Assembly (NCBI GenBank): GCA_000217635.1 | Contig: CP001817.1 | Span: forward strand, 270,001-302,000 | Length of the DNA: 32,000 bases | Direction of reading: 5' to 3' | Origin: Candidatus Saccharimonadota bacterium | Lineage (GTDB): Bacteria; Pseudomonadota; Gammaproteobacteria; Enterobacterales; Enterobacteriaceae | Part shown: piece by piece, positions 4,408-31,510 of the stretch | Numbering within the stretch: position 1 is the stretch's first letter | How the letters are laid out: each line of letters opens with the position of its first letter | Notes under the pieces: generated by a model | The model's database searches: none | What the model saw: only the letters and a program-made list of their open reading frames with translations | Told to the model about the DNA's origin: nothing | Made by a program: the position numbers and the translations under genes

Positions 4408-5175
4408 ATGTTCTTAATTGATACTCATTGTCATATCCATACATTAAATTATAAAAAATTACATAAAAATATAAAATCTGTATTAAATAACGCATTTAAT
4501 AAAAATGTAAAAATGTTTTTAGCAGTATCCACATCTGTTCAAGATTTTAAGAATCTTAAATATTTTACTAAAGGACAAAAAAATATTTTTTTATCCTGTG
4601 GATTACACCCTATTTATAAACATAAAAAATCAGATATTCTAGATCTAGAAAATCTATCACGTCAACATATAGTTATTGCTATCGGTGAAACAGGATTAGA
4701 TTTTTATCGATCTTTGCAAAAAAAAAGAGAACAAATAAAATTATTTGAAAAACACATTTATATATCAAAAAAATTAAAGAAACCAATTATTATACATAGC
4801 CGTTGTGCGAAAAAAGAAACTATATCAGCTTTATATTCATGCCATATTAAAGAAACTTCTGGTATCTTACATTCATTTAATGAAGATATTGATATGGCAA
4901 GAAAAATCCTAGATTTAGGATTCTATATATCTTTTTCTGGTATTATAACTTTTAAAAATGCAGATTATTTACGAAAAGTACTTAATTTTATTCCTATTAA
5001 CCGTCTTTTAATAGAAACTGATTCTCCATATTTATCCCCAGAGCCTGTACGTAATCAAGAAAACCAACCCTCTTATCTATTTTATATTGCAAAATATATT
5101 TCTAATTATATAAAAATGGATTTTTTAATTTTATTTCTATTTTACAAAAAAATTTTTTTACATTATTTAAATTAA
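4408..5175 (+). CDS. ycfH: TatD-family metal-dependent hydrolase YcfH, with the 3' end apparently frameshifted
   Basis: MFLIDTHCHI... (E. coli MFLVDSHCHL), GETGLDFY, IIHSR, LHSF, ETDSPYL. The last 7 codons of the 0 frame lack homology. The conserved NF..LF ending appears in the adjacent frame, which runs to TAA at 5226-5228 (see findings). Confidence 0.85.
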   Translation: MFLIDTHCHIHTLNYKKLHKNIKSVLNNAFNKNVKMFLAVSTSVQDFKNLKYFTKGQKNIFLSCGLHPIYKHKKSDILDLENLSRQHIVIAIGETGLDFYRSLQKKREQIKLFEKHIYISKKLKKPIIIHSRCAKKETISALYSCHIKETSGILHSFNEDIDMARKILDLGFYISFSGIITFKNADYLRKVLNFIPINRLLIETDSPYLSPEPVRNQENQPSYLFYIAKYISNYIKMDFLILFLFYKKIFLHYLN

Positions 5176-5230
5176 ATAATGATTCTAAAAAAGATTATTT
5201 TAAAAAAAATTATGGAAATTCCTTTTAAAT

Positions 5231-7836: not shown

Positions 7837-9722
7837 ATGATATTAAAATTAAAAAAAGGATTCTTTAAATTATATAATCAATATCTTTTACAAGATATAA
7901 ATCTTGTAATTAATAAAAATGAAAAAATTTGTTTACTGGGAAATAATGGGGCTGGAAAATCCACATTATTAAATATAATTTATAAAAAAATACCATTGGA
8001 TAGTGGGGTTATTGAAAAAAAGAAGGAAATTAAGATAAATTATTTAAAACAAAAATTACCCATTAGAACATGTGAAACAATATATCAAAATATATATAAG
8101 AGCATAGAAAAAAAATCAAATTTTTTATTAGAGTATGAAAATTTAATTAATAAAAAAAAAATTATAGAAAAAAATTTATATAATAATCAAATATATTTTT
8201 TACAATCTCAAATAAGAAAAAATAATTTATGGGATAAATATATAATTGTTAATAAATTACTTAAAGAATTATCATTAAATAAATATTCAATATTGTCTTC
8301 TTTATCCGGGGGTAATTTACAAAAAGTTTCTATCATTAAAATTTTATCACGCTCATCAAACCTTTTGCTTTTAGATGAACCTACTAACCATCTAGATTGT
8401 GAAAGTATTATATGGCTAGAATCTTATATAAAAAAATTTTCCGGAAGTGTACTATTTGTTTCTCACGATCGTTTATTTATTAATAATATTGCAACTAATA
8501 TTGTTGAATTAAATAATAATACTTTAATTAATTGGAAAACAAATAAATATGAAAATTTTATAAAAAAAAATATATAGTGATGAAAATTGAAAAAATTCAA
8601 AATAAAAAATTTAAAAAATGCATTTAAAAAAATAGAAAATAAAAACAAACAGGGCGTTAAAGCACGCACAAAAAGAAATAAAAACCAATAGAACAACATA
8701 AAGATATGAAAAATATTATATCCCTAATTAATAAAAAAAAATATACAATACTCATCAATATCCAAAAATAATAAATATTTCAAATTCTTCCCATAAAACT
8801 ATGATTAAGATAAATAATATTAATCTAATATATAATAATATACATATAATAAAAAATTTTTCTGATAAAATATTATATGGCGAAAAAATAGCTCTTGTAG
8901 GCTCTAATGGATGCGGAAAAAGCAGTATATTAAAAATATTATTAAAAAAGCTGCTTCCAAATAATGGCAGTGTTACATATAGTAATCAAATCAAAATACA
9001 AGAATTAGATCAAGAATATGATCTTCTTGAAAAAAATAATTCAGTTTTAGAAAATCTTTCTTATGGCAAGGATAGTATTGAAATTAATAAAAAAACGTAT
9101 ACTATAATCGGGCTTTTAAAAAAGTTTCTTTTTTCTGAAGACCAAATTTATTCCCCTGCAAAATCTTTATCTGGAGGTGAAATTAGTCGATTATTGTTAT
9201 TAAAATTGTTTTTTAAACCAAGTAATGTATTAATTCTTGATGAACCAACAAATCATTTAGATTTTAAAATGTTAAATTTTTTAGAAAAATTTTTAATGAA
9301 CTACACTGGAACAGTAATTTTTGCAAGTCATGATCGATATTTTGTTAATAAAATATCAAAAAAATTATGGTTTTTTAATAAAAAAGGATCAATTTCTGTA
9401 AATATTGGTGATATTGAAAACATTTATCAAAAAATATATAAAGAAAAAAAATTTAGTTTAAAAACCATAATAAAAAAAAACCTAAAATTAGAATAAATCC
9501 TATAAATAAAAAATTAAATAAAGAACTAAAAGATATCCCTAAAAATATTGAAAAAATAGAAAAAAAAATTGAGAATATATATCAAGAAATAAATAATCAT
9601 AATTTTTATAGAAATAAAGCACAATATATTAAAGATGTATATAAAAAATTATATAAAGAAAAAATAAATTTAAAAATAAATTTTTATATTGGGAGAAACT
9701 AGAAAATATAAAAAATAATTAA
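7837..9722 (+). pseudogene. uup: ABC-F ATPase Uup, disrupted by multiple 1-nt frameshifts
   Basis: ORF 7837-8577 is ABC domain 1 (GNNGAGKST, LSGGNLQK, LLLLDEPTNHLD, SHDR). ORF 8801-9496 is ABC domain 2 (GSNGCGKSS, LSGGEISR, VLILDEPTNHLD, SHDR). The linker (QGVKARTKRN) and the C-terminal coiled coil (...LYWEKLENIKNN*) are present but in other frames. Six frame changes are needed to follow homology to the stop at 9720-9722. Confidence 0.85.
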
Positions 9723-15554: not shown

Positions 15555-16559
15555 ATGAAAACATTATTTAAGAAAAATTTTTTAAAATTTTCAGATTTTA
15601 CAAAAAAAGAAATTTTATTTTTAATAAACTTTTCCATTTTTTTAAAAAAACAAAAAATGAAAACAAAGAAAATAAAATTTTTAAAAAAAAAAAATATAGC
15701 ATTAATTTTTGAAAAAAAATCAACCAGAACACGATGCGCATTTGAAATTGCTGCACGTGATCAAGGTGCTTATACAACTTATTTGAATTCAAAAGATACA
15801 CATTTGGGATACAAAGAATCTATTGAAGATACCGCAAAAGTTTTAGGATGTATGTATGATGGAATTCAATATCGTGGTTATAATGATAAAACGTTACATC
15901 TTCTAGCTAAATATTCTAATATACCTGTATGGAACGGTTTAACAGATATGTTTCATCCTACTCAATTATTAGCTGACCTTGTTACTATTGTAGAAATTTA
16001 TCCAAAAATTTTATTTGAAAAACTACATATTGCTTATATCGGAGATGCTAAAAATAATATCGCTAATACATTAATAGATGCAGCATATATATTAGGTTTT
16101 AATTTAAATATTATCGCACCCAAAATATATTGGCCAGAAAAAAATATTTTAAATATGTCTAAAAATAACAAAAAAAGAGCGAAAATTACTTGTACAGAAA
16201 ACATTGCAGATGGAGTTAAAAATATTGATTTTATTTATACAGATACCTGGATATCTATGGGGGATAAAAAAACGTGCTGGAAAGAAAAAATAGAAAATTT
16301 AAAAGATTATCAAGTAAATCAAAAAATACTTAAATTAACTAAAAATGTTAATATAAAAATATTACATTGTTTACCAGCATTACATGATAAAAATTCTACA
16401 ATTGGTTTAGAAATACATAAAAAATATAATTTTTCTTCCGGAATAGAGATTTCCAATGACATTTTTTCTTCAAAAGCAAATTTAAGTTTTCAACAATCTA
16501 TAAACAAATTACATTCTGCTAAAGCACTATTAATTTCAACATTATCTGATAAATATTAA
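15555..16559 (+). CDS. argI: ornithine carbamoyltransferase
   Basis: 334 aa. It has the carbamoyl-phosphate motif STRTRCAFE, HPTQ, DTWISMG and HCLPA. It is the same length as E. coli ArgI and colinear with it. It contains an in-frame A12 tract at 15683-15694. Confidence 0.94.
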   Translation: MKTLFKKNFLKFSDFTKKEILFLINFSIFLKKQKMKTKKIKFLKKKNIALIFEKKSTRTRCAFEIAARDQGAYTTYLNSKDTHLGYKESIEDTAKVLGCMYDGIQYRGYNDKTLHLLAKYSNIPVWNGLTDMFHPTQLLADLVTIVEIYPKILFEKLHIAYIGDAKNNIANTLIDAAYILGFNLNIIAPKIYWPEKNILNMSKNNKKRAKITCTENIADGVKNIDFIYTDTWISMGDKKTCWKEKIENLKDYQVNQKILKLTKNVNIKILHCLPALHDKNSTIGLEIHKKYNFSSGIEISNDIFSSKANLSFQQSINKLHSAKALLISTLSDKY

Positions 16560-25367: not shown

Positions 25368-25771
25368 ATTAACAGATATAATTTTTTTTCATTATTATTA
25401 GTTAATTCTTTTTGTTTTTTAGAAAAATTTTTTTTACTTTTTTAAATAAATTTTGTTTACTTTTTAATTTCACTATTAATCTCATCTCTTTTTATTTTTC
25501 TTAAAAAAAACATTTTAAGTTAAATTATTTTATTAAAATTTACTTTTTTGTTATTATATAACATATTTTTTTTAATAAAAATATTATATAATAATTAAAG
25601 ATAATTACAAAATAACTATTTTTTTAAAAAATTTTTATTATATATAAAGATATTTTTTTTACATTTTAAAATATAAATTATAAAAATTAAATAATATATA
25701 AAACATTAATTAATTTAAAATACTATAATTTTCATATTTATATATTATTAATATATAATTAAAAAACAGTT

Positions 25772-27271: not shown

Positions 27272-27352
27272 GATAGTTATCCTTAATCCAGATAATTTTC
27301 TTTAATGAAATAAAAAAACACAAAAAAAATTTATACAATACTTTTCATTAAT

Positions 27353-27380
27353 AAAAAACCCCGAAAGGTCGGGGTTTTTT
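27353..27380 (-). terminator. rho-independent (bidirectional) terminator downstream of leuU and upstream of nusA
   Basis: A6-CCCCGA-AAGG-TCGGGG-T6. This is a perfect GC-rich 6-bp stem flanked by A6 and T6, and is the most canonical intrinsic terminator in the window. On the minus strand it follows tRNA-Leu, as the secG-leuU terminator does in E. coli. Confidence 0.78.
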
Positions 27381-27561
27381 ATTAATGCGAAATACTAATA
27401 TTATGATAATAATTATGATACTTTTAATTATTAATTAAAAAATCTTAATAAAAAACTATTTATTTTTACATAATATAATCCAAAAAAATAATATATTTAC
27501 AAAAAATTTAAAATATAAAAAATAATTTTTATAGAATATACTTTAAAAAAAAAATAAAAAA

Positions 27562-27649
27562 TACCGAAGGTGGGACTTGAACCCACAAACCTATATTTTT
27601 AGGTACTACCCCCTCAAGATAGCGTGTCTACCTATTTCACCACTTCGGT
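27562..27649 (-). tRNA. leuU: tRNA-Leu (anticodon GAG), class II with a long variable arm, no encoded CCA
   Basis: The minus strand reads ACCGAAG-TG-GTGAAATAGGTAGACAC-G-CTATC-TTGAGGG-GGTAG-TACCTAAAAATATAGGTTT-GTGGGTTCAAGTCCCAC-CTTCGGT-A. It has a 7-bp acceptor stem, anticodon loop TTGAGGG and a GTTCAAGTC T-loop. It is colinear with E. coli leuU and sits in the same place after secG. Confidence 0.94.
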
Positions 27650-27759
27650 TTTTATTAACATTTAATTATTACACTATAGATAAAAAATAATATCTGTAAT
27701 TTTGACATAATTATATATTAATTATATAATTTATATATTAAAAATAATGCGAATGAAAA

Positions 27760-27972
27760 TTACATAATATTAAATTTATCAAAAAAAAACAGCATTACTA
27801 AAATCATAGTTATCCAAATAACAGTTGAATTGCGCATTTTTTTAATAAATAACTTAGTTGGAGCGTTATTATTAATAGACGAAAAATCGTTTCCTTCTGT
27901 GGGTTGGAAAATAATAATTATAAGTAAAAAAAATGAAATTAAAAAAAATAAAACTAATAAAAAATAATACAT
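27760..27972 (-). CDS. secG: preprotein translocase subunit SecG
   Basis: 70 aa from the ATG at 27972: MYYFLLVLFFLISFFLLIIIIFQPTEGND... (E. coli MYEALLVVFLIVAIGLVGLIMLQQGKGAD). It has two hydrophobic segments and the secG-leuU synteny. The ORF track starts 3 codons upstream at a GTG (27981). Confidence 0.8.
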   Translation of the reverse strand: MYYFLLVLFFLISFFLLIIIIFQPTEGNDFSSINNNAPTKLFIKKMRNSTVIWITMILVMLFFFDKFNIM

Positions 27973-28187
27973 AATAAACACCGAATTTTAAATAATAATA
28001 TTTCATTATAATGACATAACAGAAATAAAAAAAACAATAAAAAAAAATTCAAACTACTTTATTTAAAATATATTAATTTACATAATAATGTATATTTAAA
28101 AAATTATTTTTATAAAATAATATAACATTAAAAATCTATTATTTATATAAAAAAAATATAACTTTATAAAATTTTTATTATATTTGT

Positions 28188-28219
28188 TGTCTATCTCATA
28201 TAAAAAAAAGAGATAGACA
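28188..28219. other. perfect 10-bp inverted repeat downstream of ftsH
   Basis: TGTCTATCTC (28188-28197) and GAGATAGACA (28210-28219) flank a 12-nt A-rich loop, about 80 nt past the ftsH stop. There is no adjacent U-tract on either strand, so a terminator role is uncertain. Confidence 0.3.
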
Positions 28220-28298
28220 GAATTCTAAAAAATTATATATCTAAAATATTTTATCAAGATTCTAAAATGTATTACATAAAAAATAATAAAATAAATTT

Positions 28299-30119
28299 TT
28301 AATTTAGAGGAGTATTAATAAACTTTCTTGACATTAAATTATTAATTTGAACTATATTAATAGTTTCATATTTTATTAATGCATCTTTCATAGCATGTAA
28401 TATATCAATATTATCATTTAATATTTTTTTGGCTCTCTGATAATTTATTTGTATTAATAAGCGTACCTCTTCATCAATAATGCGAGCTGTTTCATTAGAG
28501 ATATTCTTTGTTTGTACTATTGATTTTCCTAAAAAAACTTCATTATCTTCTTCTGTATATAATAACGGACCTAATTTATCAGAAAAACCCCATTGCATTA
28601 TCATACTTCTAGCTAATTTTGTAGCAGTTTTAATATCGTTACAAGCTCCGGTAGATACATTTTTAGAACCATAAATAATCTCTTCAGCTAAACGTCCACC
28701 ATATAATGTAGAAATTTGCCCTTCTAATTTTTGACGGCTAACATTACATATATCCTCTTCTGGTAAAAATAGGGTCGCTCCTAAAGCATGACCTCGAGGT
28801 ATAATTGTAACTTTATGAACAGGATCATGATCCGGTACTAACCTTCCTATTATTACATGTCCGGCTTCATGATAAGCAATTAATTCTTTTTGAAGTGGAG
28901 TTATAACCATAGAACGTCTCTCTGCGCCCATCATTAATTTATCTTTAGATTTTTCAAAATCTAACATTTTTACAGTTCTTTGATTATGACGCGCAGCTAA
29001 TAATGCAGATTCATTTACCAAGTTAGCTAAATCTGCCCCCGAAAATCCAGGAGTACCTCGTGCAATTATTTTTGGTATAACATCATCCGATAAGGGAACT
29101 TTACGCATATGAATTTTTAAAATTTCTTCACGCCCTATAATATCAGGCAACGAAACTATCACTTTTCTATCAAACCGACCTGGACGTAATAACGCTGGAT
29201 CTAATACATCCGGACGATTTGTAGCTGCTATTACAATAACCCCTTCGTTACCATCAAATCCATCCATTTCTACCAAAATTTGATTTAAAGTTTGCTCTCT
29301 CTCATCATGACCTCCACCTAATCCAGTACCCCGTTTTCTACCTACTGCATCGATTTCATCTATAAAAATGATACATGGCGCAAATTTTCTAGAATTTTCA
29401 AACATATCTCTAACTCGAGATGCTCCAATTCCTACAAACATTTCAACAAAATCAGAACCAGAAATAGTAAAAAATGGAACTTTTGCTTCTCCAGCAATCG
29501 CTTTAGCTAATAAAGTTTTTCCGGTACCAGGGGGACCCACCATCAGTATCCCTTTTGGCATCTTACCCCCCAACTTTTGAAACCGCTTAGGTTCTTTTAA
29601 ATAATCTACTAACTCTAAAACATCTTCTTTTGCTTCATTGCATCCTGCTATATCTAAAAATGTTGTTTTAATTTCATTATTATCTAACATTCGTGCTTTA
29701 TTTTTTCCAAATGAAAATAATCCTTTTCCACCGCCAGTTTGTGCTTGTTTTATCAAAAATAACCATACACCAATTAATAAAATTGTAGGGCACCATGAAA
29801 TAATCAATGAAGTTATAATGTTAGATTCTACAGGAGATACCCCAACTACTTTTACACGTTTTGCTAAAAGTGTATTTAAAAGATTTATATCATACGTAGG
29901 TATACGAGTGGTATATTGAGTTGAATCTTTTTTAATAACTTGTATTGTTTGTCCATTTATATAAGCGTCACGTACTTTATCATGATTAACCTCTGATAAA
30001 AAAGTAGAATAATCAATATCATTCATATTAATATTACGTGAACTTAAATTTTGAAATAAAGATATTATTACCATACCTACAACAAACCATAAAATAAAGT
30101 TTTTAATCATGTCACTCAA
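28299..30119 (-). CDS. ftsH: ATP-dependent zinc metalloprotease FtsH
   Basis: 606 aa. It has Walker [14 protein letters not shown], Walker [10 protein letters not shown], the SRH motif and the zinc site HEAGH. It is highly similar to E. coli FtsH. The TTG start gives [11 protein letters not shown], with GAGG 7 nt upstream. An alternative ATG lies at 30110. Confidence 0.97.
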
Positions 30120-30162: not shown

Positions 30163-30791
30163 TTAAATTCTACGCCTATAAGCTATAATAAATATTTCAC
30201 GAGAATTAATTCGTGATGAATTTGGTTTAAAAATTTTTATTTTAAAAAAATATCATTAATTTTCTTTATGTATTGATTAAACCCATCTCCTTGAAAAAGT
30301 TTAATAATAAAATATCCATTTTTTGAAAGTAAAATATTTGCTATCGAAATAGCAATATCACTTAAATAAAAAGATCTAGCATTATCAACAACTGAACATC
30401 CACTGATATTTGGAGACATATCAGATACAATTGCATTCCAATAATATCGTTTTGAAATAGAAATAATCTTTTTAAAAATAGATTTATTAGAAACATCACC
30501 CTGTAAAAATATTACCCTTTTTAAGGGTTTTATTGGTATAAGATCGCATGCAAGAATATGACCTGATTGTCCGATTTTTTCTTGTAAATATTCACACCAT
30601 CCTCCAGGAGCAGCACCTAAATCAATTATATTCATACCTTTTTGAAAAATATTATATTTTTTATCTATTTCTTTTATTTTAAACCAAGAACGAGATCTTA
30701 ATTTTTTAATATTTCTTTTTTTAATATATAAATCATGAAAATTTCTATGTAACCAGTTTCCTGAACTCTTACTTTTAGTATGACGTTTCAT
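30163..30791 (-). CDS. rlmE: 23S rRNA Um2552 2'-O-methyltransferase RlmE (FtsJ), frameshifted near the 3' end
   Basis: The 0-frame ORF 30237-30791 (184 aa) has the SAM motif DLGAAPGGW plus SDMSPN and IIKLFQG. The last 25 or so conserved residues (KIKIFKPNSSRINSREIFIIAYRRRI*) are in the -1 frame, down to TAA at 30163-30165. The switch is at sense T7 (plus A7 at 30244-30250). The total is 209 codons if one nt is added. Confidence 0.88.
30243..30250 (-). other. homopolymer / U UUU UUA slippery heptamer at the rlmE frame junction
   Basis: The sense strand reads GAT ATT TTT TTA AAA TAA. The heptamer T TTT TTA in X XXY YYZ phase lies one codon before the 0-frame stop. Confidence 0.6.
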
Positions 30792-31030: not shown

Positions 31031-31510
31031 TTAAATATATTCTATTTTAATAATTAAATATTGTATTAATCCGGAAGGAGTTTTAATTTTCACTATATCG
31101 CCATTTTTTTTTCCAATAAGGCCTCTAGACATTGGTGAATAAATAGAAATTGAATTTTCCTTAAGATTAGCTTCATCATCTCCTACAATTGTATATTTAA
31201 ATATATTATCTGTACAGGTCTGTAAAATAGTTACAGTTGCTCCAAAAATTACTACATTACGGAATAATATTTTTTTAACATTAATTACTTGCGCTCGCGA
31301 TAATGTTGTTTCAATTCGTCTAATTTTATTTTCACAAAAACTTTGTTCTTCTCTTGCAGCATGATATTCAGCATTTTCTTTAAGATCTCCTAATTGACGC
31401 GCTTCTGCAATAGCATTAATAATACTAGGTCTTATAATATTTTTTAATTTTTTTAATTCCTTTTTCAATTTATTAAAGCCTTTTAATGTCATAGGAATAT
31501 AACTAGTCAC
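31031..31510 (-). CDS. greA: transcription elongation factor GreA
   Basis: 159 aa with IPMTLKGF.KL..EL..LK...RP.II.AIAEAR..GDLKENAEYHAAREEQ (nearly identical to E. coli) and a C-terminal SP..RGLIGK. The GTG start has GAGGT 6 nt upstream. Confidence 0.94.
   Translation of the reverse strand: MTSYIPMTLKGFNKLKKELKKLKNIIRPSIINAIAEARQLGDLKENAEYHAAREEQSFCENKIRRIETTLSRAQVINVKKILFRNVVIFGATVTILQTCTDNIFKYTIVGDDEANLKENSISIYSPMSRGLIGKKNGDIVKIKTPSGLIQYLIIKIEYI

Follow-up and report, generated by a model that had tools for sequence, protein, structure and literature searches.

Conserved genes divided between two reading frames have been described in several settings. In programmed -1 ribosomal frameshifting, as in E. 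coli dnaX, the IS911/IS3 elements, and gag-pol of human immunodeficiency virus type 1 (HIV-1), an in-phase X_XXY_YYZ heptamer is accompanied by a hairpin or pseudoknot at 5-9 nucleotides (nt), by an upstream Shine-Dalgarno (SD) sequence, or by conservation among homologues. In AT-rich obligate endosymbionts, single-base indels in poly(A) or poly(T) tracts of intact, conserved genes are reported to be rescued by transcriptional slippage (Tamas et al. 2008; Wernegreen et al. 2010; Blochmannia vafer, PMC3017870). One-base deficits in A/T runs also mark the homopolymer undercalls of AT-rich assemblies made by 454 pyrosequencing. Here we analyze the rRNA methyltransferase gene rlmE in a stretch of 32,000 nt (the window: contig CP001817.1 of assembly GCA_000217635.1, positions 270,001 to 302,000; coordinates below are those of the window), which has a G+C content of about 20% and comes from Buchnera aphidicola (Cinara tujafilina), strain BCt: seven of the proteins it encodes are identical to proteins of that strain, on one record of 444,925 bp (AEH39815-AEH39831), and occur in no other source. 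We find that rlmE is a conserved, selected gene broken by one missing base at the junction of a T7 and an A4 run, and that this break does not represent a recoding signal but a homopolymer indel of the ordinary kind. A search of the literature returned no mention of a frameshift in BCt rlmE.

The two-frame rlmE gene

The annotated rlmE gene (30237-30791, minus strand) is an open reading frame (ORF) of 184 codons plus TAA, deposited as an ordinary coding sequence (CDS) in GenBank and RefSeq (AEH39830.1 / WP_013877967.1). A sequence-only reading of the window had described this ORF as ending in ...KKINDIFLK* at these coordinates, as is seen in the sequence, and had placed the remainder of the gene in the -1 frame, which translation confirms. 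The junction reads GAT ATT TTT TTA AAA TAA AAA TTT TTA AAC on the sense strand, with the 0-frame stop at 30237-30239. Read from 30243, the -1 frame gives KIKIFKPNSSRINSREIFIIAYRRRI*, a tail of 26 codons (K184-I209; 30163-30243, minus strand) that ends in a TAA at 30163-30165 and, joined to the 183 residues before it, completes a protein of 209 amino acids (aa).

With this tail the gene is unambiguously RlmE (FtsJ/RrmJ), the 2'-O-methyltransferase of U2552 in 23S rRNA, as the sequence-only reading had named it. The match to Pfam FtsJ (PF01728), a check suggested by that reading, grows from 139.7 bits over profile positions 2-156 of 181 to 167.5 bits over positions 2-180, and the match to the NCBIfam RlmE model NF008390 grows from 195.9 bits (1-183 of 209) to 228.7 bits (1-207 of 209). 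The latter score remains under the curated NCBI cut-off of 269, where other BCt proteins likewise fall short, as is expected because the symbiont evolves fast. Against E. coli FtsJ (1EIZ) the restored protein aligns without a gap to within two residues of the end (E = 2.4e-51), the tail included, as had been claimed. In an alignment of 15 sequences, K38, D124, and K164 are invariant, while K189, P190, S193, S197, and E199 are nearly so; K38, D124, K164, and E199 are the catalytic residues reported for E. coli RlmE. BCt RlmE retains every one of these conserved positions. The catalytic lysines and aspartate lie in the 0 frame, as had been proposed, and K189, P190, S193, S197, and E199 are supplied solely by the -1 frame, in which alone the codon for Glu199 (30196-30198) is read.

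Modeled with AlphaFold (mean predicted local distance difference test, or pLDDT, of 89), the restored protein has beta-strands at residues 182-188 and 199-207, and the tail encodes most of the first of these (strand 6) and the second (strand 7). The 184-aa product is thus without E199 and, judged from the model, without two strands of the seven-stranded methyltransferase sheet, and it is reasonable to predict that this product is inactive.

BCt RlmE is the sole truncated protein among the 120 homologues listed, the other 119 being 205-228 aa long. The closest relatives among these matches (75, 72, 72, 56... % identity) are all Buchnera of Cinara aphids; their genomes measure 395-448 kb and their RlmE proteins 206-209 aa. 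We compared the rlmE DNA of four relatives. At the site of the lesion the relatives read ATC TTT GTA AAA GTA AAA ATT (F-V-K-V-K-I), and BCt reads ATT TTT TTA -AA ATA AAA ATT. The frameshift is not maintained across species: the five closest relatives are intact and have no T7 tract, and with TTT GTA AAA GTA in a single frame they keep neither the shift site nor the two-frame layout. The T7 tract (30244-30250, minus strand; A7 on the plus strand) is specific to BCt and arose by C>T and G>T changes, the AT-biased route to homopolymers. It is a candidate site for the missing base, and the only tract at the junction with a length sufficient for slippage of RNA polymerase. Directly 3' of it lies the A4 run (30240-30243, minus strand), where the alignment gap is placed and which the sequence-only reading did not consider as an alternative site. 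The frame is restored equally by T8A4 (F-F-K-I-K) or by T7A5 (F-L-K-I-K), and T7A5 saves one substitution relative to GTA AAA GTA. The missing base may equally have been lost from the T7 or the A4 run.

The argument that the out-of-frame tail is conserved, also made earlier, is borne out by its divergence. In Nei-Gojobori comparisons of BCt with three relatives, the tail has a nonsynonymous divergence (pN) of 0.12-0.15, as against 0.14-0.16 for the body of the gene, and the ratio of nonsynonymous to synonymous divergence (dN/dS) of the body, 0.18-0.25, is the same as among intact relatives (0.21-0.24). There is one lesion only in rlmE, with no second indel and no stop within the 26-codon tail. 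The tail has diverged no faster than the body, which rules out only an old frameshift, because it offers about 60 nonsynonymous sites and dS to the nearest relative is about 0.8. The conservation of rlmE across two frames is far beyond chance.

A second lesion in ycfH and other features of the window

Every ORF of the window was checked for profile matches that stop short of the profile's ends. A screen based on -1 or +1 frames that stay open beyond stop codons was dropped, since several genes have 24-28 open codons of this kind by chance or through overlap. A second lesion is found in ycfH (4408-5175, plus strand), which encodes a TatD-family hydrolase annotated at 255 aa with its last 17 residues out of frame. 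Profile matches of the annotated protein end at positions 232 of 265 and 235 of 253. Reading in the -1 frame after a T6 tract (5121-5126, plus strand; GAT TTT TTA ATT), which is one base short and has U_UUU_UUA in phase, gives ...KMDFFNFISILQKNFFTLFKLNN... and extends coverage to 1-260 of 265 and 1-252 of 253, with scores up by about 8 bits. The resulting tail (NFISILQKNFFTLFKLNN...; 5127-5228, plus strand) ends with a stop at 5226-5228, two bases ahead of the ATG of hinT. In an alignment of 12 sequences the shifted frame regains the nearly invariant residues N249, F250, L253, and F254, none of which is matched by the annotated C-terminus FLILFLFYKKIFLHYLN. One relative has GAT TAT TTT AAT TTT at the corresponding site.

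The two lesions are alike. Both are one-base deficits at the junction of a T-run and an A-run (T7A4 in rlmE, T6A2 in ycfH), both lie at 0.865-0.870 of gene length, and both products appear in the databases as plain CDSs. Of 245 A/T runs of at least 6 nt in coding DNA, only 33 fall in the last 12% of genes, and the chance that both lesions would lie there is p ~0.02. Some filter has removed lesions lying further upstream. With a twin 25 kb away, the rlmE lesion belongs to a pattern of the record or of the genome and is not a device of rlmE.

Homopolymers are extremely frequent in the coding DNA of the window, which in about 25.9 kb contains 139 A/T runs of at least 7 nt, the longest being an A12 at 15683-15694 in argF/argI. 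On the sense strand, poly(A) runs outnumber poly(T) runs by 118 to 21, and all are in frame apart from the rlmE, ycfH, and uup cases. The uup gene (ABC-F ATPase; 7837-9690, plus strand) is a pseudogene with multiple lesions and with segments that remain well conserved. It comprises at least four recognizable pieces with at least two frame changes: 7837-8577 (profile 3-244 of 636), which ends in an in-frame TAA at 8575-8577; 8587-8691 (linker); 8801-9496 (profile 321-536 of 636); and about 9470-9690, the coiled-coil C-terminus in another frame. Outside the window, holB (DNA polymerase III delta') is split into two overlapping ORFs of 154 and 183 aa in one Buchnera of a Cinara relative (LT667503), at a T9 run at about 613-621 (ACG CTT TTT TTT TAT CTA CCA), and is intact at 331 aa in BCt and in another relative.

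The rlmE gene stands in the minus-strand order greA (31031-31492), rlmE, ftsH (28299-30110), a secG-like ORF, tRNA-Leu, nusA, infB, rbfA, truB, rpsO, pnp. The restored rlmE stop is separated from the ftsH ATG (30110) by 52 nt, compared with 53 nt in one relative. The annotated start of greA may be wrong: the deposited protein has 153 aa from the ATG at 31492, and a GTG at 31510 (gene 31031-31510, minus strand) would give 159 aa (MTSYIPMTLKG...), which matches profile positions 1-5 and the 159 aa at which GreA is called in two relatives. The interval between ftsH and nusA (27272-28298, minus strand) contains only a tRNA-Leu(GAG) gene (27562-27649) and the secG-like ORF of 73 aa (27760-27981); folP and glmM, which in E. 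coli are located in this interval, are absent from it. The 405-bp spacer between nusA and infB (25368-25771, minus strand) was considered as a further hidden frameshift and ruled out, as it has no coding remnant in any frame. The IF2 encoded by infB has 710 aa with a low-complexity start and a profile match from residue 131, its N-terminal domain apparently having been lost.

Explanations for the missing base

The explanation that we favor, and hold to be evenly balanced between true and false, is that the chromosome has the base and the 2011 record alone lacks it, as an uncorrected homopolymer undercall of pyrosequencing. The sequence-only reading had rightly listed such an assembly error, along with a pseudogene, among its alternatives. 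The bacterium would then make a normal 209-aa RlmE that methylates U2552, and the undercall would have been overlooked in curation since the ORF is still near full length (184 of 209 codons). The BCt chromosome was probably sequenced by 454, given that the C. tujafilina libraries of the same laboratory from that period were 454 FLX/Titanium and that its sister project was 454-only. An error in the record is supported by the occurrence, within 24 ORFs of the window, of two conserved genes that each carry a single unannotated lesion without decay, and uup, the sole clear pseudogene of the window, differs from rlmE and ycfH in having an in-frame stop and several frame changes. The 3'-terminal position of both lesions is what would be left by a filter under which gene-splitting frameshifts are repaired and those that barely shorten an ORF pass unnoticed, and we infer that the curators did repair mid-gene frameshifts and miss the 3'-terminal ones. 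If so, the C-termini given in AEH39830.1/WP_013877967.1 (RlmE, 184 aa) and in the 255-aa entry for YcfH are incorrect, and more hidden 3'-terminal frameshifts are possible in this widely used reference, about 25-30 genome-wide at the rate of the window.

Several observations weigh against a record error. All 19 coding runs of at least 9 nt in the window are in frame, as are all 38 runs of 8 nt; pyrosequencing errs most on the longest runs, and survivors at T6 and T7 therefore imply many corrected errors or bad luck. The use of 454 for this record is itself one of our inferences. We found no independent BCt assembly or reads: exact-protein look-ups (RlmE, GreA, FtsH, and others) returned a single NCBI record of 444,925 bp and no Logan or ENA copy. 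In addition, the split of holB in LT667503, which comes from another project, indicates that homopolymer frameshifts also occur in other assemblies of the clade, and the literature on Blochmannia and Buchnera records real frameshifts of this kind, in essential genes too.

A real deletion, with selection persisting through a small share of full-length RlmE made by non-programmed slippage, is possible but in our view doubtful. The main route would be transcriptional, with RNA polymerase adding an extra U on U7 (...DIFFKIKIF...), and a lesser one would be a ribosomal -1 shift on U_UUU_UUA (...DIFLKIKIF...). The lesion lies in a poly(T) tract of a gene that is otherwise intact and conserved and whose tail is free of excess divergence. 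The RNA polymerase of E. coli has a strong bias towards poly(T) over poly(A), and a -1 reporter is rescued by it only from T7 upwards, with no rescue detectable on shorter tracts; at T7, rescue of a green fluorescent protein (GFP) reporter is about 5% and U insertion by RNA sequencing is 0.75% (PMC6260861), and a frameshifted methyltransferase gene has been saved mainly through its T7 tract in that host. In Buchnera transcripts, insertions become exponentially more frequent as runs lengthen, up to 11 nt. Homopolymer frameshifts without accelerated evolution are reported in Blochmannia for dnaG, dnaX, pth, and other genes, and the T9 break of holB provides a parallel in a Cinara-Buchnera relative. 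RlmE is catalytic, so a few percent of it might suffice.

On the other side, T7 is the minimum in E. coli, and the endosymbiont tracts described in published accounts are longer (at least 9 bp, one of 11), with about 30% corrected transcripts. This places T7 at the lower limit, with a yield of the order of 1-5% to be expected. The T6 of ycfH is under the GFP-detectable threshold for the E. coli polymerase, the rlmE frameshift is conserved in no relative compared, and a transcriptome-wide study of Buchnera saw no frame-restoring transcription error. The ribosomal route fares worse, at <=0.5% by the E. coli data, as heptamers without a stimulator reach at most about 10 times a background -1 shift of 0.055% in E. 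coli, where U_UUU_UUA is far less shift-prone than A_AAA_AAG; if the lesion is real, transcriptional slippage would thus be the better route of rescue. Were the base truly missing, BCt would add short-tract cases of T6-T7 to the endosymbiont genes that survive a homopolymer frameshift, and would offer a natural test of the minimal need for RlmE and of slippage rescue below the 9-12 nt studied so far.

It is unlikely that the deletion is real and unrescued, making rlmE a very young pseudogene and leaving BCt ribosomes without Um2552. The 0-frame product does lack the final two sheet strands together with E199, single-base homopolymer indels are regarded as key initial steps in the loss of genes by endosymbionts, and the 78-nt tail would bear no mark of a recent event, dS to the nearest relative being about 0.8. 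Nevertheless, rlmE is intact in every relative among the 120 matches listed, smaller genomes included, and RlmE loss is reported (PMC9074899) to be the one rRNA-modification knockout with a major growth defect in E. coli. It is improbable that two conserved genes of 24 ORFs would be caught together in a single-lesion state, and our impression from the few relatives examined is of a stable gene content.

A bolder version, which we consider very unlikely, is that both lesions are real and that rlmE, ycfH, and, by extrapolation, perhaps a few dozen conserved genes genome-wide reach essential C-termini only by constitutive low-level -1 slippage at U-runs of 6-7 nt. The RNA polymerase or the ribosome of Buchnera would then be markedly more slippage-prone on short poly(U) than its E. 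coli counterpart. Widerak and colleagues are said to have found in 2005 that methylation of U2552, in the ribosomal A loop, modulates frameshifting and readthrough. Because RlmE methylates this very nucleotide, expression of rlmE and the fidelity of the ribosome could be coupled.

The least probable explanation is programmed -1 ribosomal frameshifting, with U_UUU_UUA (30243-30249, minus strand) having evolved as a signal that controls how much RlmE is made. The sequence-only reading had called this motif the classic -1 slippery heptamer. It is indeed in X_XXY_YYZ phase one codon ahead of the 0-frame stop, is identical to the HIV-1 shift site, and is present at the ycfH lesion as well, but its reading as a signal is not supported. 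In-phase X_XXY_YYZ heptamers number 298 across the 8,593 codons of the window's 24 ORFs, and U_UUU_UUA accounts for 29 of these (the rlmE copy included; truB alone has four). Because Phe-Leu is written UUU-UUA in this genome, codon usage alone puts 26 of the 36 sense runs of at least six T followed by A (72%) in the same phase, and an efficient heptamer would truncate many other Buchnera proteins. The 114 nt downstream of the rlmE site fold at -13.6 kcal/mol, no more stably than shuffled sequences (z = -0.85), and the sole local hairpin begins about 27 nt beyond the site. No SD-like sequence (GGAGG, AGGA) occurs in the 30 nt upstream, the relatives compared have TTT GTA in place of the shift site, with no second frame, and the heptamer is weak in E. 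coli. Taken alone, the rlmE heptamer is no more than chance in the BCt genome, unlike the rest of the observation. A 3'-adjacent stop codon as a stimulator common to both genes was rejected, the stop being one codon away in rlmE and 17 codons away in ycfH. Separate expression of the rlmE tail was likewise rejected, as it lacks any start codon (ATG, GTG, or TTG) and its two beta-strands would not be functional alone.

Whether the base is missing from the record or from the chromosome, the case falls in known categories, and current concepts are unchanged.

Comparison with known systems

Compared with programmed -1 systems, rlmE shares the in-phase X_XXY_YYZ heptamer, in the form of the HIV-1 site, and lacks the other two of the three defining features. 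It is without a hairpin or pseudoknot at 5-9 nt, without an upstream SD sequence, and without conservation of the site among homologues, and its motif is ubiquitous in the BCt genome.

The rlmE record also resembles the 454 undercalls of AT-rich assemblies. It has a one-base deficit in an A/T run, the frame downstream is perfectly preserved, a second case lies in the same 32 kb, and both lesions are situated where annotation would not flag them. It differs in that the platform of the BCt record is only probably 454 and that the longest runs of the window are all in frame, unlike what is expected of undercalls.

A close parallel to a real lesion is mboIIM2 deltaA356 (Koscielniak et al. 2018, PMC6260861), likewise a methyltransferase gene with a one-base deletion, in which an A-run and a T7 closely precede a premature TAA. 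Its full-length protein is regained mainly by U insertion at the T7. This is an engineered E. coli plasmid system, and its values of 0.75% of transcripts and about 5% of reporter may not transfer to the RNA polymerase of Buchnera.

With the slippage-rescued frameshifts of endosymbionts in published accounts, rlmE has in common a single-base indel in poly(A)/poly(T), an intact and conserved gene, an AT-rich obligate symbiont as host, a downstream frame that is undecayed, and a tract arisen by AT-biased substitution. It differs from them in tract length (7 nt, and 6 nt in ycfH, versus at least 9 bp, one of 11, in these accounts), in a frameshift that is not common to relatives, and in being known from the DNA record alone, of which it may be an artefact. 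rlmE may be a short-tract member of this class, sharing its kind of indel, borderline in tract length, and lacking its conservation across relatives.

Finally, as a member of the RlmE family, the restored BCt protein agrees in length (209 aa), covers the full profile, and carries the K38-D124-K164-E199 tetrad, and its gene stands in the shared order greA-rlmE-ftsH; the other members listed are encoded in a single frame, whereas in the BCt record the gene occupies two.

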